Source: a bacterium
GTDB taxonomy: Bacteria; Vulcanimicrobiota; JABDET01
Direction: 5' to 3'
Length of the DNA stretch: 64,000 nucleotides
Assembly (NCBI GenBank): GCA_021800275.1
Contig: JAJYZB010000003.1
Coordinates: 680-64,679, forward strand
In this document: positions 6,913 to 61,098 of the stretch, one piece after another
Layout: each line of letters begins with the position of its first letter
How positions within the stretch are numbered: the stretch's first letter is position 1
Program-made: the position numbers and the translations under genes
Notes under the pieces: generated by a model
The model's database searches: none
What the model was told of the DNA's origin: nothing
The model's input: only the letters and a program-made list of their open reading frames with translations

Positions 6913-8370
6913 ATGGCAGTAAAAGTCTTCATCCCAACCCCCCTCCGCCCCTACACCAATCAAAAAGATGTGGTAGAAGTGGAAGGCAGAACGGTTGCAG
7001 AAGCTCTCCAAAAACTAACCGCTTCTTATCAGGATTTAAAAAAACATCTTTATACAGAGGATGGGAAGCTCAGGAGTTTTGTCAATATTTATGTCAACGA
7101 TCAGGACATCCGACATCTTAAAAAAGAAAAAACTCCATTATCAGGAGAAGAAACGGTTCATATTGTCCCTTCGATTGCTGGAGGCTCTCAAAATTCAAAT
7201 GGACATAACAGCGCTGCTCAAACCCTAGAAACCCCGCTTTCTAAAGATGAAATGCAGCGGTACTCACGCCATTTAATCATGCCTGAAGTCGGAATTGAAG
7301 GTCAAACAAAACTAAAAATGGCAAAGGTTTTGTGTATTGGAGCAGGAGGACTTGGGGCTCCTGTAAGCCTTTATTTAGCAGCAGCCGGGGTTGGAACAAT
7401 TGGACTGGTTGACTTTGATCAAGTGGATTACACGAACCTCCAAAGACAGATCCTTTACAGCACTTCAGATGTTGGAATCCCTAAACTAAAAGCAGCTGAA
7501 GAACGATTAAAAAAATTAAATTCAGAAATCCTAATTAACACGCATGAAACAAAGCTGACCTCTGAAAATGCCCTGAAACTCTTCCGTGATTATGATGTCA
7601 TTGTGGATGGAACAGATAATTTTCCCACACGGTATCTGGTCAATGATGCTTGTGTGTTAACTGGAAAGCCAAATGTGTATGGAAGCATTTTCAGATTTGA
7701 AGGTCAGGTCTCAGTTTTTGATGCTGAAAAAGGTCCCTGCTACCGCTGCCTTTATTCAGAACCTCCTCCCCCAGGACTTGTTCCATCCTGCGCAGAAGGA
7801 GGAGTTCTTGGAGTTCTGCCTGGAGTCATTGGATCTTTCCAGGCCCTCGAATCTCTAAAATTAATTTTAGGAATTGGAGAACCTCTTATTGGCAGATTAA
7901 TTTTGTTTGATGGTCTAAATTTTAAAATCCGAGAGATGAAATTGAAAAAAGATCCAAACTGTCCTATTTGCGGAAAAGAGCCAAAAATTAAAAAACTCAT
8001 TGATTATGACCAATTCTGCGGAATAAAAAAGGAGGAAGAAAAAATGGAGTATGAAATTGACATTGAATTAGAGGAATTTAAACATCTTAGAGATCAGAAA
8101 GTCGATCACATTTTAATAGATGTGAGAGAAAAATGGGAATGGGAGTTATGCTGTTTCCCTGAAGCCTTACACATTCCTCTTGGGGAACTCCAGCGCCGAA
8201 TGAATGAACTGGACAAATCTAAATTCATCATCGTTCACTGCAAATCTGGGGGAAGGAGCGCCAGAGCAGTTGAACAGATGAAAAAAGCAGGGTTCGCAAA
8301 AGTTAAAAACTTAAAAGGTGGAATCAATGGGTGGGCTGAGAAGATCGATCCATCTGTTCCCAAATATTAA
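6913..8370 (+). CDS. sulfur-carrier (MoaD/ThiS-like beta-grasp, ending GlyGly) fused to MoeB/ThiF-type E1 adenylyltransferase and a C-terminal rhodanese domain (MoeZ-like)
   Basis: N-terminal ~91 aa ends ...VHIVPSIAGG (GG terminus of sulfur carriers); E1 nucleotide-binding GAGGLGAP and zinc motifs CYRC...CPIC; rhodanese active-site loop VHCKSGGRS; AGGAGG RBS before the ATG at 6913. Confidence 0.85.
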   Translation: MAVKVFIPTPLRPYTNQKDVVEVEGRTVAEALQKLTASYQDLKKHLYTEDGKLRSFVNIYVNDQDIRHLKKEKTPLSGEETVHIVPSIAGGSQNSNGHNSAAQTLETPLSKDEMQRYSRHLIMPEVGIEGQTKLKMAKVLCIGAGGLGAPVSLYLAAAGVGTIGLVDFDQVDYTNLQRQILYSTSDVGIPKLKAAEERLKKLNSEILINTHETKLTSENALKLFRDYDVIVDGTDNFPTRYLVNDACVLTGKPNVYGSIFRFEGQVSVFDAEKGPCYRCLYSEPPPPGLVPSCAEGGVLGVLPGVIGSFQALESLKLILGIGEPLIGRLILFDGLNFKIREMKLKKDPNCPICGKEPKIKKLIDYDQFCGIKKEEEKMEYEIDIELEEFKHLRDQKVDHILIDVREKWEWELCCFPEALHIPLGELQRRMNELDKSKFIIVHCKSGGRSARAVEQMKKAGFAKVKNLKGGINGWAEKIDPSVPKY

Positions 8371-8378
8371 GATCTGAC

Positions 8379-9662
8379 TCAAAACTCCATTTTGTAAAAA
8401 ACAAGTCCTGACCAGAGTTTAGGATAAAAATCAGTGGATTTATGCGGCATTTTTTCTCCTGATTCAGCCACTTTTCTGACCTGATTCGGTTTTACAGGAT
8501 TCAAGAAAAAAGCGAGCTTATGGGGATCCTCTTTAATCTCTTTCAAAACATCTTGGGGCCATCTGATATAGTTAATCCATTCATCGCTTTTTTCAGGCTG
8601 GATCTGAAGAATACGGTTAAAAATCAAAGAGTGAAGAACAAAAACGTCCAGTTCAACTAGGACCGGAGGAATTTCAGGAAACTCTTTTTTCAAATCTACA
8701 GATGTTTTCAAATTCAAAACGAAAAAGTCATCCTTGTCTGCCAACCCAAAAGAAAAACTCTGTCTTTCAATTCCCTCCAGCGCCTCCTGCAAACTGTCAA
8801 CCTTTCTCATGTCAAAATAATCAGGAAGTCTTTCCTTCAGCAGTCTCCTCTGAATTTCATTGAGATTTTTTAAAACCCGATGCGTTGGGAGTATTTTCAG
8901 CCCTTTATTCTGCAAGCTGACAAAAGTACCCAGTCTAAAATTAAAAGGGGCTGAATCATCGCTCGAAGAGCAGAAAACAGACCGCATTTCCTGCTGGTAA
9001 AGCAGACTTGTCTCATAGCGATGATGCCCATCAGCAATCAATAAATTTTTATCTTTAAAAAAATCCACAACTTGATTCAAAACTTCAGTTTTTGACAGTT
9101 TAAAAATCGAATGGGATGTGTCTGATGGATCAGTACACAAAAAAAGCGGTTCTCCCGCGCACTTTTCTAAAAATTTTTCGAGATACCGATCTGGATCATC
9201 GTATAAGAAAAAAACATGCTCAAAGTTCGTTCTGCATGTTTTCATTAATTTAAATCTGTCCTCTTTAGGTTTAGGAAAGGTCTTTTCATGCGGAAAAACT
9301 CCTTTCCCGAAAGGTTCTAGTCTCATCAAGCCAACAAGTCCTGCTCTTTCAAACCACTGCCCATAAAGTTTAAACCTCTGACGATACAAATAAAAAGATG
9401 GCTCTTTATCCTGAACTAAAACTCCTTCCTGAATCCACTTTCTCATCATTTGATCAGCCCGGGTGTAGCGGTTTTCTTTTTCAGTGTCATCACTGAAAAC
9501 TTTCCCAAAGATCAAACGCACAAAATTATAGGGACTACTGGCACAAAAGTCGTCCTGCATCTGAAGCGATATTTGATCATAAGGAGGGGCAATAACTTTG
9601 CCCATATCTTTGATCTCTTTCGTATTATAATGATACCCCTGGAATGGAATTAAACTGACCAT
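8379..9662 (-). CDS. DUF1015 family protein
   Basis: N-terminal MVSLIPFQGYHYN...KVIAPPYDQIS matches the DUF1015 signature (PF-RYN...APPYDVIS); start moved to the internal ATG at 9662. Confidence 0.6.
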   Translation of the reverse strand: MVSLIPFQGYHYNTKEIKDMGKVIAPPYDQISLQMQDDFCASSPYNFVRLIFGKVFSDDTEKENRYTRADQMMRKWIQEGVLVQDKEPSFYLYRQRFKLYGQWFERAGLVGLMRLEPFGKGVFPHEKTFPKPKEDRFKLMKTCRTNFEHVFFLYDDPDRYLEKFLEKCAGEPLFLCTDPSDTSHSIFKLSKTEVLNQVVDFFKDKNLLIADGHHRYETSLLYQQEMRSVFCSSSDDSAPFNFRLGTFVSLQNKGLKILPTHRVLKNLNEIQRRLLKERLPDYFDMRKVDSLQEALEGIERQSFSFGLADKDDFFVLNLKTSVDLKKEFPEIPPVLVELDVFVLHSLIFNRILQIQPEKSDEWINYIRWPQDVLKEIKEDPHKLAFFLNPVKPNQVRKVAESGEKMPHKSTDFYPKLWSGLVFYKMEF

Positions 9663-52545: not shown

Positions 52546-52977
52546 TTGGCAGAGCTTGAAGAAAAGATCCAGGATACCTACTGCTTGCAAGCCGCGAATG
52601 AAGAAGATATGAAGAAGCAGAACGAAATACAGAAACTTTTGCAAAAAGGAAGAGAGGACCCCAATATTGCAGCAGTTTTACTTTACGGGAGCAGAGCCCG
52701 ATCTGAAGAAACACCCTTTTCTGATGTGGATGTTTGTCTCATATCACGCAAAAAACCTTCAATTCAAGAAAAATTAAAGTACTTAGAATACGATCTTGAT
52801 CTCCATTTTTTCCGTGATCTTCCTCTTTATATCAGAAAAAGAGTCATTCAGGAAGGAAAAATTTTACTTTCCAAAGATGACCCATTCCTTTATGATCTGG
52901 CATACCGCACAATCAGAGACTTCGAAGATTTTAAACCCTATTACTACCAATATTTGAAGGCAGTAGAAAGTGCTTGA
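52546..52977 (+). CDS. minimal nucleotidyltransferase (MNT) antitoxin-like protein
   Basis: Pol-beta NTase motif LLYGSRARSEETPFSDVDVCL (GS...DxD). Confidence 0.65.
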   Translation: MAELEEKIQDTYCLQAANEEDMKKQNEIQKLLQKGREDPNIAAVLLYGSRARSEETPFSDVDVCLISRKKPSIQEKLKYLEYDLDLHFFRDLPLYIRKRVIQEGKILLSKDDPFLYDLAYRTIRDFEDFKPYYYQYLKAVESA

Positions 52978-53392
52978 TAAAGAGCGGATTTTAAACAGAA
53001 TCTCCATTCTTGAAAAACATTTGAAAGAGCTGCAAGAGATCATCCCAAAGAGTTACCAAAATTATCAAGAAATCAAAACAAAAAGATCATGTGAAAGACT
53101 ACTGCAGATCTCTATAGAATGTGTCATGGAAATCTGTAGTTTAATGGTCGCTGGACTTAAGCTAGGGCTGCCTGGAGAAGAAGATGATCTGATTCAAAAA
53201 TTAATAAATTCAGGTATTTTTTCTGATTCACTAGGAGCAGTTCTGAAAAAAATGAAAGGATTCCGCAACAGGCTGGTTCATGAATATGAAAAAACGGATG
53301 ATCGTCTGGTTTATGAAATTTTAAAACGAAATTACAATGATTTTGAAAAATTTAAAAATTCAATCAAAAAAGCTCTTTCTTCGCGAAAATAA
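52970..53392 (+). CDS. HEPN-domain (HepT/DUF86) toxin-like protein
   Basis: HEPN Rx4-6H motif RNRLVHEY near the C-terminus; 8-nt overlap with the upstream MNT gene. Confidence 0.65.
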   Translation: MLDKERILNRISILEKHLKELQEIIPKSYQNYQEIKTKRSCERLLQISIECVMEICSLMVAGLKLGLPGEEDDLIQKLINSGIFSDSLGAVLKKMKGFRNRLVHEYEKTDDRLVYEILKRNYNDFEKFKNSIKKALSSRK

Positions 53393-54509
53393 AAAGATTT
53401 GGCGATTGCGAATAGAACCTTAATTGTTCTCTTGAAAAGAGTGCGGATAAGCTTTTTTTACTATCCTTATCCACTGATTAAACCCCTGGTTCCCTTCAAA
53501 AAACTACTGCTGGCTTCCGCTGTGGATATTGGGATCATGAAACTGTCTTGGATTTTGCGTTTCAAGCAGCAAAAGCCATCAGCTATTTCGAGGACGCTGA
53601 ACGTGAACCAATGCCGCGGCTGCTGAAACCAATCTCCTGGGAAAAAATACGCTCTCACTTTGAAAATTTAAGTTCTGAAATCACTGCTGAGCTGCTGAAA
53701 TAAAAAAAACTATCTCGAGTATAATCTTTGCTCCGATCTTGCCCATGGCAGCAATCCTGCTGAAAGGGATTCCACTCCCTTCATTTTCACCTCTGAATGC
53801 TGTTTTTTTCCTTGAATTCCCTTTTATTTTATGGTATGATATGGGAAATGGTTTCAAAAAAGTTGAAAGTTTTTTTTAAAAAACGACTATCCGCCGCTTT
53901 TGACACGGTAAAACTATTTATGAAGCCCTTAAAACCCGTTTCCCGGACCCGTGAACTTTTCCCGAAAAAAAACTTGAAACTGCAGCGCTGCCAAACATCT
54001 TTCCTGAGTGTGTCAGACATCAGTTTATTAATCGAGGCTTTCTCACAGGCCATTTTGAAAGGAAAGTTTGCGCCTGGGCGAACCCTGAACAATCTCATTC
54101 TGTGATTGAGAACCTTGTGAGTGCGGCTTCCCTGGCTGGAAAGAGTGCATTTCAAAGTCTGAAGATGTCACTTTTCCCAATGAATATGGGAGGGAGAACT
54201 CAGTGAAAAAAGAATTATCACACAGTAGCAAAAAGTTATAAAAAGGTTCAAGGCAGTGACAAAAACATCGCATAATAAAAAACAAAATTTTAACTTAGAA
54301 GAAGAATGGGATTCTATTCTGAAAGAATTCGGTTCAAATTCTCCTCGATTCCGCAGATACAATAAAAAACAGCAAGAAAGTTGGTTTGCCTCACAACTTT
54401 TGTTGACTGTCATTGCAAAATCAAAACATGAACCATTAAAATCTGACCTGGAGAATCTTTACCTCGATTTCAAGAAACAAAGACTGAGCAGCTAGCCTAT
54501 TTTAAGTCA

Positions 54510-57022: not shown

Positions 57023-57739
57023 TTACTTCTTTCCATTTACAATCCGCTTTAAATCGCCAATGAACTTGTCAAACATTTTCACCCTATCGCTCTCTTCTAC
57101 GATCTGTTCGCTCATGACATAGCCGCCATCAGTGTCAAGTTCCACAATCGCCCTTCCTTTTTTTGCAGGGAACTTTTTAGTCAGGGTGCTGTCCTCATCT
57201 GGAGTTATAAAAAAGACTTTAATATGTTTTGTTACTTCATCTGAGCCAAGTTTGATTTTCCAATAACCTGTTTGAGCGATTCTTTCTCTCAGGGTTACTT
57301 TACTCGAAATAACGGCAACAGGGGTGCATGAATGTGGATCATAAATAACCAGATCTACATCAGGTAGATGATGGCCGAAAGAACCATAATCTACAAGAAG
57401 TGCTCTTTTCACAAGATTTAATTCTCGTGAAAGATGACTGTTTGTGGTTCTTTCTAATGCATTCCCTTCAACAATTTTAAGTCCTAAATTTTCGACTTCA
57501 TCTCTAATGATATGCAGAACAAGTTTTTCTAGATTTTTGCCTTTAAAAGCTCTCCAGGATTGTTCATGATCAGGAATCCTTCCTTCTGCTTTTGCTCGCG
57601 CTGCTGTTGTGCTATTCGCAAAGTCTTTCTTGTGAATCTCTTTTGCTTCTATTAAAAGAGAAGTGATGTGTCTGTAAGTTTCTTCTCCGTGCTTTCGCTT
57701 TTTATCCTGATACAGGGCCAGTAAATCATCAAACTTCAT
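57023..57739 (-). CDS. putative restriction endonuclease (PD-(D/E)xK-like)
   Basis: Gene overlaps the upstream MTase stop by 4 nt; candidate catalytic segment HLPDVDLVIYDP...VAVISSKVTLRE; weak. Confidence 0.4.
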   Translation of the reverse strand: MKFDDLLALYQDKKRKHGEETYRHITSLLIEAKEIHKKDFANSTTAARAKAEGRIPDHEQSWRAFKGKNLEKLVLHIIRDEVENLGLKIVEGNALERTTNSHLSRELNLVKRALLVDYGSFGHHLPDVDLVIYDPHSCTPVAVISSKVTLRERIAQTGYWKIKLGSDEVTKHIKVFFITPDEDSTLTKKFPAKKGRAIVELDTDGGYVMSEQIVEESDRVKMFDKFIGDLKRIVNGKK

Positions 57740-58989
57740 TGTATGTCTTGATGATTCTCTGACGAATTGGTTTCTTTCTCTGAATCTTTTTCTCTAGAGT
57801 ACTGGGTCCAATTAACTTTTGTTCTGGTAGAAGACAATTTGTTTTCAGAAACCTTCCTCATCAAAAAAAGGTGTTTGAAACCCCTTAAATAAAAGTTAAA
57901 TCTGATGGCTCTGTTATGCCACATTCCTGTATTAGATGTCTGATTCCGTCTGGTCACGCAGATCATGTCAACTGTTTCAAAATACTTACACAATCTCTGA
58001 TAAATGAGAAATCCAACAGGTGTAAATTTCTTTTTAACCCACTGATCTCCAATAAGCCAGCCTAACACTTTATCAGGTTTTAAAATCCGATGACATTCTT
58101 TCATTACTTTTTCAAGCTCATCATAAAACTCTTCAGACTCAGCCGAAATCTTGCCGATATTCCCTGGATGAGAATTATAAGCGATATTATCTCCATACGG
58201 AGAATCAATAAAAATCATATCCACACTGTTATCCTCTAAGGGGATTTTTCTCGCATCATTCTGGATGACATCAGATCTTGGAGGGGCTATATCATAAGCC
58301 ACACATTTTCGATTTTCTTCTCGGCAAACATCCAGGGTTGTGCCGCTCCCAGCCATAGGATCAACAACCAGATCTCCTGGCTCCGTGTATCTTTTTATCA
58401 TGTTATAAATAATAAAAGCAGGAGTAACTCCTGCATAACGGTTGTTCCCTTTAGGAGTTTTGCCATAACTCTGCCTTGGAAAATCCCACAATGTTGTAGA
58501 TTCAAGGGTGGGCTTGTCATCAGCAGATTTCTGAAGGTTTTTTAATTTTTTGGGTATAACAAGTTGAACATTGAGAGGATTTGAACCATTACTGCTTCCG
58601 TTTTCAAAACACTCAATCAGGATGCCTGCCAATTCGCTGCTGAGTGGCTCCCTCCAATCAATGCCCAATTGATTTAAAATTTTCCCAGAAGTCTTACCCA
58701 CTGTCGTTTTATTGGTTTTTTCAATTTTTACCTGATAGGGATACTTTCCACCCCAGGCTTCTGGAACAAGATCCTTTTTTCCATCAGATTCTGCTTTAAA
58801 TGGACCATAAAAAATATCTGAATCCAGGTTGAGCAAAAATAACCTGTCCCCCTTTTTCACCTGCAGAGCTTTTTCAGCATACAATTTATTTGTGGAGAAA
58901 AGCATTCTGTCAAAGCACTCTTGTTCAGTTTTGTTTGTGCAAGCGAAAATGTATCCCATGACTTCTGCGACTGTTTGTGCTTGACTCAT
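57736..58989 (-). CDS. DNA amino-methyltransferase (N6-adenine or N4-cytosine) with N-terminal DCD/EVE-like PUA-type reader domain
   Basis: MTase motif I VVDPMAGSGTTLDV and motif IV MIFIDSPYGD; N-terminal 90 aa GYIFACTNKTEQECFDRMLF...DRLFLLNLDSDIFYGPFKAESDGKKDLVPEAWGGKYPYQVKIE match the DCD domain consensus (GxIFxCxxxTxxEC...LF...LFL....L.G.F.A.SDG...AW...FPAQV). Confidence 0.65.
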   Translation of the reverse strand: MSQAQTVAEVMGYIFACTNKTEQECFDRMLFSTNKLYAEKALQVKKGDRLFLLNLDSDIFYGPFKAESDGKKDLVPEAWGGKYPYQVKIEKTNKTTVGKTSGKILNQLGIDWREPLSSELAGILIECFENGSSNGSNPLNVQLVIPKKLKNLQKSADDKPTLESTTLWDFPRQSYGKTPKGNNRYAGVTPAFIIYNMIKRYTEPGDLVVDPMAGSGTTLDVCREENRKCVAYDIAPPRSDVIQNDARKIPLEDNSVDMIFIDSPYGDNIAYNSHPGNIGKISAESEEFYDELEKVMKECHRILKPDKVLGWLIGDQWVKKKFTPVGFLIYQRLCKYFETVDMICVTRRNQTSNTGMWHNRAIRFNFYLRGFKHLFLMRKVSENKLSSTRTKVNWTQYSREKDSEKETNSSENHQDIQ

Positions 58990-59381
58990 TTTACATTCTC
59001 CTCCTGATGACTCTAACGGTACTCTGGTATTCCTGACACTTTAATTTTTTAGGGACAAAATCTCTCGGCTATGTGCTCATCCTGCAAAATCTTTTACTCT
59101 CAACACGATTCCTCCTTGTGGATTTCCTAAAATCACTCCACTGTGTTGGCAATTTTTGGGCGATTATATTTTTCATAGTGAATCCCAAATTGTCAGTGTT
59201 TCTTTTTGAAGTCTCAGGCGTCCGCCGACAAACTTTACGTAAGGGAGAATGTGTCCATTCTTGTCTTCTATATAAGCTGGAGTGAGAGAAGGCTCCTCAA
59301 AAGCCTCTCCAATGCCCATACTCTCTGCATTTGTCCAAAACCCACTCCAGTTGCAGTGTTCCAAAATCTCATAATTTTCTT

Positions 59382-60689
59382 TCAGTTTTTCAATCTTCCC
59401 AGGAGAGATGCTCTCTCCCTAGACAGCACAATCAGATGCTCTGTTTTCATTCGGTTGTCAGAAATTCCAGTGGCGGGATTAGTTTTGTATAAAAACATGG
59501 AACGGGAAACAATGGTGTCAACCAGAGTGATTTCATGTTTCCAGCCCAAAGAAGTGAAATGCTCGCGGAAAATCTGGCTCATTGGAATGGCATTTCCTCT
59601 GACATTGGCAGGTCCCACAAAAAGCAGCAGATATTTTCTAATTTTTTCCTGGAGAGAATTCAAAATTCCAAAGACACCGTAAAAATACCGCTTAAACATT
59701 TTTTGCAGATGAGCCTCATCAATTCCATTTAAACATTCATCATACGTTGGAGAATGAATCTGGACAACGGGCACATCCCTATAAGGAATCTCTTTTTTCC
59801 CCAAATCCTTGATGAATTCTTCAGAATATCCCATCCAGAAAAGATCCATTTTGGTGGAACGAATATACTCTTGCGCTTGCAGATAAGGAGGAGACGTGAT
59901 GAGAATGTCAGACTCTTTCTCAGGGCTGGCTGCCAGCCCATCAACTGCTGATTGAATGACGCAGTCAACAGGTTGAGGATTTAAACTCTGATATTCTTTC
60001 AATTTCAATAAAATACTTAAATAGCCATTCCAGATCATTTTGTAAAAAATATTTTTCCAATCTTTCTCCAGCAGGGTTTCTATCCGTTTATCTGCCATTG
60101 GGGACCGAGACAATTTTAATCGTTTCTCGTCATTAAAAGAAAAATAATGGGTAGTCTTTAAAAGAGGAATAAGCAGCAGATTCTTAAGTCTCTGATCTTT
60201 CAACTGATGAAAATAGCCCCAGGCTTTTGAGAGCAGATCCAGACACTCTTCTGGATGCCAATAATTTAATGATCCCCAGTCAGGAACATAAGGTTTTGAA
60301 TTTTCCACCGCTTTTTTTAAATCAATCTTTTCTTCTTCTTGAGGGCTCATGACAGCAGCTGAATGGAAAAATTTTAAGAGAGGGTTTAAATCCCAGAGTT
60401 CATAAGGATTTCCGTAAATTCTTGAGACAATCCCGGTGGTTCCATATCCTGCAAATGGATCCATAATCCTCATTCCAGAAACCCCATACGTCTTCAAAGC
60501 ATAAGCAATAACTTGAGGTATGAATTTTGCGGGATACCTGTACAATCCGAAGGTAGCATAACTGGTAGAAGGAATCTCTGGGGAGAGGCTTCTAAAAAGG
60601 ACAGGAACTTCTTTAAAAGCAGGGTTCTCTAATAAAATCTCCTTTTGAGCAGGCTGCTGGGAAAAAGCCATTTGCGCTACTTTCATCAT
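59382..60689 (-). CDS. DNA methyltransferase (alpha-class amino-MTase; SPPY motif suggests N4-cytosine or N6-adenine)
   Basis: Motif I IMDPFAGYGTTGIV and motif IV ILITSPPYLQAQEY separated by a long putative TRD. Confidence 0.65.
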   Translation of the reverse strand: MMKVAQMAFSQQPAQKEILLENPAFKEVPVLFRSLSPEIPSTSYATFGLYRYPAKFIPQVIAYALKTYGVSGMRIMDPFAGYGTTGIVSRIYGNPYELWDLNPLLKFFHSAAVMSPQEEEKIDLKKAVENSKPYVPDWGSLNYWHPEECLDLLSKAWGYFHQLKDQRLKNLLLIPLLKTTHYFSFNDEKRLKLSRSPMADKRIETLLEKDWKNIFYKMIWNGYLSILLKLKEYQSLNPQPVDCVIQSAVDGLAASPEKESDILITSPPYLQAQEYIRSTKMDLFWMGYSEEFIKDLGKKEIPYRDVPVVQIHSPTYDECLNGIDEAHLQKMFKRYFYGVFGILNSLQEKIRKYLLLFVGPANVRGNAIPMSQIFREHFTSLGWKHEITLVDTIVSRSMFLYKTNPATGISDNRMKTEHLIVLSRERASLLGRLKN

Positions 60690-60861: not shown

Positions 60862-61098
60862 TCACTCTGGAGGGCTGATCGTCTGCAGAGCTTCTTCAAA
60901 GGTCTGCTTCCATTCATTCAGCCGATCCGGGAAGATCAAAATTCGAGAGTTTGCCCAGTTCCCATCCGCGATTCGAGATTCGCTTAGAACCAGGTACTGA
61001 CTCCCGTTTTTTTCGGAGACCCGAACATCAATAAAATAGTTTCGGCTTTTCCCTCCCGAAATTCGTCGGGTGAAAAGCACTTTCCCATTTTCTGCCAT
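60862..61098 (-). CDS. DUF3276 family (bacterial PUR-alpha-like) nucleic-acid-binding protein
   Basis: FTRRISGGKSRNYFIDVRVSEKNGSQYLVLSESR...RILIFPDRLNEWKQTFEEAL matches the DUF3276 repeat pattern. Confidence 0.5.
   Translation of the reverse strand: MAENGKVLFTRRISGGKSRNYFIDVRVSEKNGSQYLVLSESRIADGNWANSRILIFPDRLNEWKQTFEEALQTISPPE

Follow-up and report, generated by a model that had tools for sequence, protein, structure and literature searches.

Introduction

In prokaryotes, the DCD domain is often fused to a methyltransferase, and the gene for the fusion is usually followed by a gene for a PD-(D/E)xK nuclease (Bell, Wolf and Koonin 2020, BMC Biol 18:159, PMC7641849). These authors called the DCD rare in prokaryotes, left the nuclease family unnamed, reported no experiments, and proposed that the DCD recognises another modification. 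The locus analysed here shares with their pairs a DCD at the N-terminus of a Rossmann-fold methyltransferase, a PD-(D/E)xK gene behind it, and, for its family, a bias towards archaea and thermophilic bacteria. It is thus a further case of the architecture published in 2020, and therefore confirms a published prediction rather than representing a new kind of system. It differs from the earlier description in that the nuclease is placed in the BsaWI/CCGG family, that the family is large rather than rare (3089 matches, 347 species genomes), and that, once redundancy is removed, about 60% of the related loci inspected here carry no nuclease. New here are the CCGG-family nuclease, a methylase core that is complete apart from the DCD, the mobility of the two genes, and nuclease-less loci in which the DCD is conserved.

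In known defence enzymes, EVE, YTH, and SRA readers are mostly found on nucleases that attack modified DNA. VcaM4I (EVE-HNH) and the other Type IV EVE/YTH/SRA-nuclease fusions resemble the present pair in reader fold and defence context. Their reader, however, steers a nuclease to modified DNA, whereas the reader of the present pair shares a polypeptide with the protective methylase of a classical, modification-blocked system; the logic is therefore reversed with respect to the Type IV fusions. In UHRF1 (SRA), a PUA-like fold flips the methylated base of the parental strand and is coupled to DNMT1, which acts on the daughter strand. The likeness to UHRF1-DNMT1 concerns the proposed action only and is an analogy, not membership, as different and separate proteins are involved there instead of a fusion, and C5-cytosine instead of exocyclic amino methylation. 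Stand-alone circularly permuted methylases of ~245 aa (Fusobacterium vincentii L088:3995-4729; PADLOC PDLC03376) have the same core and motif order but neither the DCD nor the linker. The F. vincentii enzyme also differs in its motif IV (HPPY, here DSPY) and in its partner, a DpnII-like nuclease ORF as judged by eye.

Gene organization

The features of the pair in the window, i.e., the whole 64-kb stretch of DNA that was analysed, are as follows.

57736..58989, minus strand: DCD-methyltransferase fusion gene, 417 aa (ORF, PF10539, and PF01555)
57023..57739, minus strand: gene for a predicted BsaWI-family (CCGG-family) PD-(D/E)xK restriction endonuclease, 238 aa (PF18643)
57736..57739, minus strand: ATGA overlap of methylase stop and nuclease start (read from the sequence)
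58998..59005, minus strand: Shine-Dalgarno-like AGGAGGAG, 8 nt 5' of the methylase ATG
58597..58959, minus strand: DCD domain of the EVE/YTH-like PUA type, residues 11-131 (Pfam match: 11-94)
58531..58596, minus strand: linker, ~residues 132-152, variable and of low confidence (homologue alignment, pLDDT <50)
57853..58530, minus strand: amino-methyltransferase core, residues 153-379 (PF01555, 2zie, PADLOC, Fusobacterium homologue)
58336..58362, minus strand: AdoMet-binding motif I, D210-P-M-A-G-S-G-T-T218 (aligned to solved methylases)
58195..58206, minus strand: catalytic motif IV, D262-S-P-Y265 (aligned to SPPY of 2zie)

The two minus-strand ORFs of 417 and 238 aa and their 4-nt overlap, which an earlier note on this DNA had described, are both seen in the sequence. 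The overlap, CAATGAAG, contains the methylase TGA and the nuclease ATG, an arrangement indicative of translational coupling. The Shine-Dalgarno-like element 8 nt upstream supports a start at M1 and hence the long methylase ORF, whereas the public gene call P0001 (389 aa) begins at M29 and loses the first DCD strand. This strain encodes another methylase, of 435 aa and with an SPPY motif, directly upstream of the pair. Promoter and terminator scans gave counts no higher than background, neither Rfam families nor tRNA genes were found in the window, and no repeats bounding an island were found when looked for.

The DCD domain

The earlier note had assigned the N-terminus of the methylase to a DCD-like domain based on three peptides, GYIFACTNKTEQEC, LFLLNLDSDIFYGPFKAESDG, and YPYQVKIE, all of which are found in the translation. 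The assignment stands: PF10539 (Dev_Cell_Death) matches residues 11-94 well above the curated Pfam cut-off of 27.8 (E=1.1e-18, 67.6 bits, profile 1-87 of 126), and the DCD signature motifs FxC(T/S)xxTxxEC, LFL.N....L.G.F.A, and (F/Y)P.QV are present as IFACTNKTEQEC, LFLLNLDSDIFYGPFKA, and YPYQV. All 76 of the 76 diverse DCD relatives retrieved in a domain-only search also match PF10539. Across diverse DCD proteins, C17, F51, L52, N54, G62, A66, P84, and Q86 vary little or not at all, and among 47 homologues C17, T18, E22, E24, C25, D48, L52, N54, G62, F64, A66, A78, W79, G81, Y83, and Q86 are invariant. The aromatic and polar positions F64, W79, Y83, N54, D48, and Q86 are common to eukaryotic DCD domains.

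An AlphaFold model of the domain (pLDDT ~80-90) comprises strands and helices in the order E12-17, H19-28, E30-33, H35-42, E49-54, E59-66, and E85-89. Its top Foldseek matches are YTH domains with m6A (4u8t, 4rcm, YTHDF2), PH1033, MJECL36, and the EVE-HNH enzyme VcaM4I (top E ~4e-6 to 3e-4, TM ~0.6; 54 matches at E<=1e-3). The DCD profile likewise matches EVE/UPF0310 proteins in the PDB (MJECL36, E=2.5e-5; PH1033, E=0.02), and model and profile together bear out the proposed relation to the EVE/YTH fold. Of the two Pfam families named in the earlier note, only PF10539 matched; EVE (PF01878) was absent among the Pfam matches of the methylase at E<=1, and the kinship to the EVE family proper thus appears at the profile level only. 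Taken together, sequence and model indicate that the N-terminal domain is a genuine DCD with a predicted PUA-like, EVE/YTH-type fold. In the literature, we found no binding or methylation experiment for any DCD domain.

The methyltransferase core

PF01555 (N6_N4_Mtase) matches residues 153-379 of the methylase (E=1.3e-26, 94.4 bits, cut-off 26.7) as two stretches in swapped order, and the motif order X-I...IV is circularly permuted relative to beta-class enzymes. Against PDB chain 2zie, residues 165-250 align to 195-282 and residues 245-320 to 28-104. The PDB DNA methylases that match the core are TTHA0409, N4CMT, CcrM, RsrI, and PvuII, and the PADLOC Type II MTase models match up to 1e-23. 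Motif I (DPMAGSGTT, residues 210-218), which is invariant or nearly so among homologues, aligns to DPFAG(S/T)GTT of TTHA0409 and N4-cytosine methyltransferase structures. In motif IV, D262, P264, and Y265 are invariant among homologues, and homologue P0003 reads DPPY. An Asp at the start of motif IV is typical of N6-adenine enzymes. The product would be m6A or m4C, with the motif IV Asp pointing to N6-adenine; such a motif would fit the YTH-like m6A pocket, without proving the base.

The core is complete on its own: the PADLOC MTase_II profile, 249 positions long, aligns through its positions 4-249 with methylase residues 150-379, and the stand-alone 244-aa Fusobacterium methylase, which has no DCD, aligns end to end with residues 153-379. 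As judged from these alignments, the DCD is an add-on joined through a flexible linker. The linker differs in length and sequence among homologues and has a pLDDT <50, and the full-length structure prediction (pTM 0.52) does not fix the placement of the DCD relative to the catalytic domain. Segments 160-188 and 347-369 of the core are invariant, yet have low pLDDT, and are probably the core's own DNA-contact loops. The DCD as the target-recognition domain of the enzyme was rejected as the primary reading, as stand-alone enzymes match the core over its full length.

A related proposal is that the DCD reads no modification at all. It would then clamp nucleic acids in general, mediate dimerisation, or act as an additional target-recognition element, and so increase the affinity or specificity of the enzyme for the unmodified site. 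Classical PUA domains indeed have unmodified RNA as ligand, the full-length model is structurally most similar to enzymes of the Trm11 type, with an N-terminal nucleic-acid-binding THUMP before the same linear methyltransferase topology, and orphan methylases retain the DCD. The nearest folds, however, belong to the branch that binds modified bases (YTH, EVE, VcaM4I) and not to classical PUA domains, the conserved aromatic and polar residues are those shared with eukaryotic DCD domains, and stand-alone homologues with a complete catalytic core do without the DCD. We consider a reader of modified bases the better description and the clamp rather improbable.

The restriction endonuclease

BsaWI is a Type IIP/IIF restriction enzyme of the CCGG family, to which NgoMIV, Cfr10I, Bse634I, SgrAI, and AgeI also belong. 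It cuts W/CCGGW; its R169-D170-R171 reads CCGG, its K85 reads the outer A:T, and D175 is the second acidic residue, one of four catalytic residues. The 238-aa ORF, previously described as a putative PD-(D/E)xK nuclease, belongs to the BsaWI family by both Pfam and profile comparison. PF18643 (RE_BsaWI) matches over its full length (profile 2-105 of 105, E=2.9e-31, 108 bits, cut-off 26.2), and homologues are named 'BsaWI family type II restriction enzyme' by NCBI. In the PDB, a direct phmmer search with the nuclease gave nothing relevant; BsaWI (4zsf) is the best match of a 16-sequence nuclease profile, and the direct sequence similarity is very weak (profile E=0.18). E71, D127 (preceded by P126), and K147 align to E92, D145, and K165 of BsaWI, and the contiguous R151-E152-R153 to R169-D170-R171; E71, P126-D127, K147, and R151-E152-R153 are invariant in 16 homologues. 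D175 and K85 of BsaWI, however, are not conserved and are replaced by T157 and A64, and therefore flanking-base specificity, and possibly active-site geometry, would differ from those of BsaWI. The nuclease is a member of the BsaWI family, but probably not a BsaWI isoschizomer.

Word counts in the window and 78 related loci pointed to no specific avoided site. None of the NCCGGN palindromes is absent from the 64-kb window, where the O/E of CCGG is ~0.58 and that of GGCC lower still (0.24-0.33). CCGG O/E is 0.56 in 32 nuclease-bearing loci plus the window and 1.30 in 46 orphan loci, two groups that differ in taxonomy, and GGCC O/E is also lower in nuclease-bearing loci (0.46 versus 0.94 in orphan loci). 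A TCCGGA signal in the pooled loci disappears under an order-3 model.

Distribution and genomic context

The methylase has 3089 database homologues, and the family is present in 347 species genomes, with a taxonomic bias towards archaea and thermophilic bacteria. All of the best 120 of the 3089 homologues share the fusion of DCD and methyltransferase. The reader-methylase fusion is therefore real, as the earlier note had claimed, but not unusual as the note had supposed: it is common for the DCD, both in these homologues and according to PMC7641849.

The nuclease gene lies directly downstream of the methylase gene in 38 of 84 related loci, across phyla and in bacteria as well as archaea. The adjacent, co-oriented nuclease that is kept as a partner identifies the locus as a restriction-modification pair, not an orphan methylase. 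Among 69 non-redundant related loci, 28 carry the nuclease and 41 (~60%, mostly Nitrososphaera) do not. DCD identity is 61.6% in the 41 nuclease-less and 58.8% in the 28 paired loci, with 13.8 and 13.4, respectively, of 14 invariant DCD residues kept. Because the DCD is equally conserved in loci that lack the nuclease, its function seems to be tied to methylation and not to the nuclease.

The family has a patchy distribution with high identity (55-83%) between phyla and domains, which argues for a mobile restriction-modification gene and not for a housekeeping RNA enzyme. Sequence and context indicate that the pair is a self-contained, horizontally mobile two-gene module. In a plasmid collection, we found only distant methylase cores without a DCD and no homologue of the nuclease; one of these methylase cores served as DCD-less control.

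The distribution also bears on whether the fusion is an RNA methyltransferase (e.g., m2G, Trm11/RlmL-like) that binds RNA through a PUA-type domain and is encoded next to a nuclease gene by coincidence. The top Foldseek match of the full model is the Trm11 m2G10 tRNA methyltransferase (E=5e-9), Pfam UPF0020 (RMKL-like) matches residues 240-272 with 24.2 bits (cut-off 22.3), NCBIfam Trm14 models match weakly and far under their cut-offs, and the nuclease is missing in many family members. By sequence, however, the methylase matches DNA N6/N4 methylases in Pfam, PADLOC, and the PDB, the nuclease recurs directly downstream in the loci counted above, the two genes overlap in the window, and the spread is that of a mobile gene. 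On sequence family and conserved nuclease partner we rejected the RNA methyltransferase, which is very improbable.

The neighbourhood of the pair is likewise informative for the cross-talk proposed by Bell, Wolf and Koonin, in which the DCD would recognise a different, pre-existing mark from another host or phage system and the fused methylase would add a supplementary methyl group, blocking the partner nuclease on DNA modified in this way. This model was put forward in the only paper describing the architecture (PMC7641849). DCD relatives elsewhere are joined to helicases and to nucleases (FokI cleavage domain, NYN), which would suit a domain that senses modified bases in general, and this strain has the second methylase directly upstream. 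However, that methylase is missing from the closest relatives, which have the same methylase-nuclease pair, and when 26 loci of unrelated genomes were compared, no neighbour of the pair was recurrent, nor did a second modification gene recur, so that the pair must work in hosts with arbitrary methylomes. The DCD is also intact in orphan copies. Such cross-talk seems rather improbable.

A subset of homologues has an extra, separate N-terminal HTH domain (PF12728/MerR), and the DCD is therefore unlikely to be a transcriptional controller. The same HTH domain, which probably serves regulation, speaks against the DCD as a regulatory sensor of RNA or of free modified nucleotides, such as methylated mononucleotides released by DNA degradation, that would switch activity or expression of the methylase. 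The flexible linker would permit autoinhibition, and for a different defence system a PUA-family domain was recently reported to bind m6-dAMP (PMC12871103). Nothing at this locus directly supports a sensor, and we regard it as highly unlikely.

Proposed mechanism

We are highly confident that the locus encodes a CCGG-family restriction-modification pair with a genuine DCD/PUA-like domain. From family membership, the PD-(D/E)xK endonuclease is expected to cut an unmethylated CCGG-containing site, and the coupled amino-methyltransferase (N6-adenine or N4-cytosine) to shield the same site in host DNA. The YTH/EVE-type fold normally accommodates a flipped-out modified base. The DCD could thus dock on a base that is already methylated, the simplest target being the mark that the enzyme itself had placed on what is now the parental strand of a freshly replicated, hemimethylated site. 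Once docked, it would tether the catalytic domain to host DNA, favouring maintenance over de novo methylation, and accidental protection of unmethylated invading DNA would therefore be rarer.

As a whole, a mobile Type II restriction-modification module with a DCD that docks on a methylated base is our best explanation, at a probability that we put just short of even. That the DCD reads the methyl mark of its own enzyme is a tentative proposal, somewhat less probable than the whole. More doubtful still is that, by reading the mark of its own domain, the enzyme is a self-templating 'maintenance' methyltransferase, by analogy a one-polypeptide prokaryotic counterpart of UHRF1-DNMT1. Two base flips by a single polypeptide within one 4-6 bp site may clash sterically, which argues against the own-mark model. 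The DCD most likely serves as an accessory reader through which the methylase is targeted, perhaps to hemimethylated DNA that bears the enzyme's own mark.

Implications

Among prokaryotic domains, the DCD of this family is the one most closely related to the DCD of plants. Because the sequences are close (Pfam E=1e-18), the ligand of this DCD would be a first biochemical handle on the plant cell-death DCD, and a binding study of the small domain would serve two fields. The two-gene system is simple and experimentally tractable, and the family is abundant, with thousands of sequences that include many from ammonia-oxidising archaea, where it survives without the nuclease. With a reader on the protective methylase, the methylase may tell host from foreign DNA by pre-existing marks and, if so, would less often protect an invading phage by accident. 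If the DCD reads the enzyme's own mark, this would account for the survival of the fusion in Nitrososphaera archaea, where it would be an orphan epigenetic writer-reader.

Gene pair and predicted nuclease

The two open reading frames lie where the earlier note had placed them and are on the minus strand, as read from the sequence of the window:

57736-58989, minus strand, DCD-methylase ORF, 417 aa
57023-57739, minus strand, nuclease ORF, 238 aa
AGGAGGAG box, minus strand, 8 nt before the methylase ATG

The TGA of the methylase and the ATG of the nuclease overlap by four bases within ACAATGAAGTTT. A public JGI gene call (P0001, identical protein, 389 aa) begins at M29, the region concerned being 58905-58989 (minus strand), and this start leaves DCD without its first beta-strand and helix. 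As the AGGAGGAG box precedes M1 and residues 12-28 are conserved in homologues, the longer ORF is the correct one.

The 238-aa ORF matches the whole 105-position profile of PF18643 (RE_BsaWI; Pfam, E=2.9e-31), which speaks against the refuting case named in the earlier note, namely that this ORF is not a nuclease; NCBI names its homologues 'BsaWI family type II restriction enzyme'. In the PDB, a 16-sequence nuclease profile finds BsaWI (4zsf) first, as a weak match (E=0.18). Residues E71, P126-D127, K147, and R151-E152-R153, all invariant across the nuclease family, align with E92, D145, K165, and R169-D170-R171 of BsaWI, of which the first three are active-site residues and the last is the contiguous R-(D/E)-R motif reading CCGG (PMC4652773). 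D175 and K85 (outer base pair) of BsaWI are replaced by T157 and A64. We conclude that the protein is a predicted CCGG-family nuclease with flanking specificity unlike that of BsaWI. What is shown here, or follows straight from family membership, is a putative CCGG-family Type II restriction-modification (R-M) system with translationally coupled genes.

GGCC is strongly depleted in the whole window (38 observed vs 116-161 expected), which suggests GGCC-specific restriction, past or present, in this lineage. Depletion of CCGG is smaller (54 observed vs 92-94 expected). Word avoidance pointed to no recognition site for the R-M pair.

Genomic neighbourhood

Further features of the window are:

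59382-60689, minus strand, second methyltransferase-like ORF, 435 aa (DPFAGYGTT ... SPPY; PADLOC MTase_II, E=1.4e-24; Pfam weak)
52546-53392, plus strand, toxin-antitoxin pair of MNT-type nucleotidyltransferase (143 aa) and HepT-like RNase (140 aa), genes overlapping
53400-54500, both strands, ~1.1-kb stretch between the HepT gene and a 145-aa ORF, with short overlapping ORFs only
60862-61098, minus strand, 78-aa ORF, sub-threshold match to DUF3276 (E=2.7e-4; PUR-alpha-like)

The 435-aa ORF lies directly upstream of the DCD-methylase, is also present in the related locus L085 and is absent from the closest relatives (L001-L005). As it has no adjoining nuclease gene, it resembles a solitary methylase that was inserted specifically in this strain. 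The MNT/HepT pair, also present in L085-L087 and not in L001-L004, marks together with the second methyltransferase-like ORF a small defence island of variable content, flanked by conserved housekeeping genes. Between this island and a T2SS-F gene sits the 78-aa ORF, 89% conserved in relatives and probably encoding a housekeeping nucleic-acid-binding protein. Rfam and tRNA scans of 53400-54500 gave no match, and differing small genes are called at the equivalent stretch of related contigs.

DCD domain and methylase core

The DCD/EVE-like character that the earlier note had ascribed to the N-terminus holds: residues 11-94 match PF10539 (Dev_Cell_Death; Pfam, E=1.1e-18, 67.6 bits vs a 27.8-bit cut-off), and the related folds are YTH/EVE-like. 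A Foldseek search of the PDB gave 54 matches at E<=1e-3, with m6A-bound YTH domains (MRB1 4u8t, Pho92 4rcm, YTHDF2), PH1033 and MJECL36 (EVE/UPF0310 proteins), and VcaM4I, a modification-dependent nuclease of EVE-HNH type, at the top. The domain is a sister of EVE/YTH and falls outside EVE proper, because a profile from 28 diverse DCD sequences finds MJECL36 (E=2.5e-5) and PH1033 (E=0.02) while the EVE model of Pfam gives no report for the protein. Among 1.8 billion cluster representatives, 1195 relatives of the domain alone were found. All 76 relatives scanned by Pfam (each of at least 190 aa) match PF10539; three of them carry the same methylase, and other fusion partners are CCCH zinc fingers, NYN RNase, FokI cleavage domain, and helicase.

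The methylase match to PF01555 (N6_N4_Mtase; Pfam, E=1.3e-26) is split into two pieces in swapped order. Since the C-terminal AdoMet half and the N-terminal SPPY half of the beta-class structure 2zie align in exchanged order (residues 165-250 and 245-320, respectively), the core has its motifs in the order X-I...IV and is circularly permuted with respect to the beta class. Motif I reads DPMAGSGTT and motif IV D-S-P-Y (DPPY in one homologue), with D262, P264, and Y265 invariant among homologues. This linear motif order also explains why Trm11-type enzymes rank first for the full-length model (Foldseek); that the DCD-methylase is an RNA methyltransferase is very improbable. A 244-aa Fusobacterium ORF (E=4e-26) and the 249-position PADLOC Type II methylase profile both match residues 153-379 end to end, which shows the core to be complete and DCD and linker (residues 1-152) to be an addition. 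The full-length model (pTM only 0.52) is confident in its DCD and Rossmann parts and of low confidence in the linker and in segments 160-188 and 347-369; being invariant yet disordered in the model, these segments are read as putative DNA-contact loops.

Distribution and proposed role

A search with the full-length DCD-methylase returned 3089 matches, the best 120 of which all combine PF10539 and PF01555 at 63-83% identity. A subset of these 120 has an extra N-terminal HTH of MerR/excisionase type. In this subfamily (homologues P0007, P0011, P0012, P0016, and others) the HTH spans ~80 aa (PF12728 HTH_17/MerR-type), the proteins are annotated 'excisionase family DNA binding protein', and the HTH presumably serves autoregulation of the R-M operon. 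Relatives occur in 347 genomes of the GTDB species set, the best 80 being mainly Nitrososphaera and other Thermoproteota, Bathyarchaeia, Thermodesulfovibrio, and a few other bacteria. A BsaWI-like gene lies directly downstream of the methylase in 38 of 84 loci (tblastn); most Nitrososphaera loci lack a nuclease, and their neighbouring genes are unrelated. Among 69 non-redundant loci, the 41 orphans (without adjoining nuclease) retain DCD no less fully than the 28 paired copies, with DCD identities of 61.6% vs 58.8% and 13.8 vs 13.4 of 14 invariant DCD residues kept. The orphan loci (L010-L062, from Nitrososphaera and related archaea) have varied genomic contexts, with the match at ~8001-9130 in most.

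We infer that DCD assists the methylase as an accessory reader of modified bases: its nearest folds are base-flipping readers, and the core does not need it. A clamp or recognition module that reads no modification is unlikely, and a nucleotide-sensing regulatory domain very improbable. Conservation of DCD where the nuclease is lost argues that the reader serves methylation itself. As no partner gene recurs with the module in the unrelated hosts where it works, the simplest available ligand would be the product of its own methylase; the cross-talk model that Bell et al. proposed is considered unlikely. Reader folds, dispensability, orphan conservation, and lack of a recurrent partner together lead us to favour, tentatively and at less than even odds, the possibility that DCD recognizes hemimethylated sites (the earlier note had suggested hemi-modified DNA as a target), which would bias the methylase to maintenance methylation.

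The fusion had been called unusual, a view overtaken by Bell, Wolf and Koonin (BMC Biol 2020, PMC7641849), who recognized the DCD of prokaryotes as a PUA domain resembling EVE and reported it often fused to a methyltransferase, mostly with a PD-(D/E)xK nuclease following; later literature naming DCD merely cites that work, and our literature search for experiments on its ligand found none. The underlying observation is confirmed and its interpretation supported, and the locus is a further member of the family described in 2020. What this analysis adds is that the nuclease is assigned to the CCGG family, that the methylase core is complete, that the two genes form a module, and that orphan copies are numerous in ammonia-oxidising archaea, where the orphan DCD-methylase may be a widespread epigenetic writer-reader.
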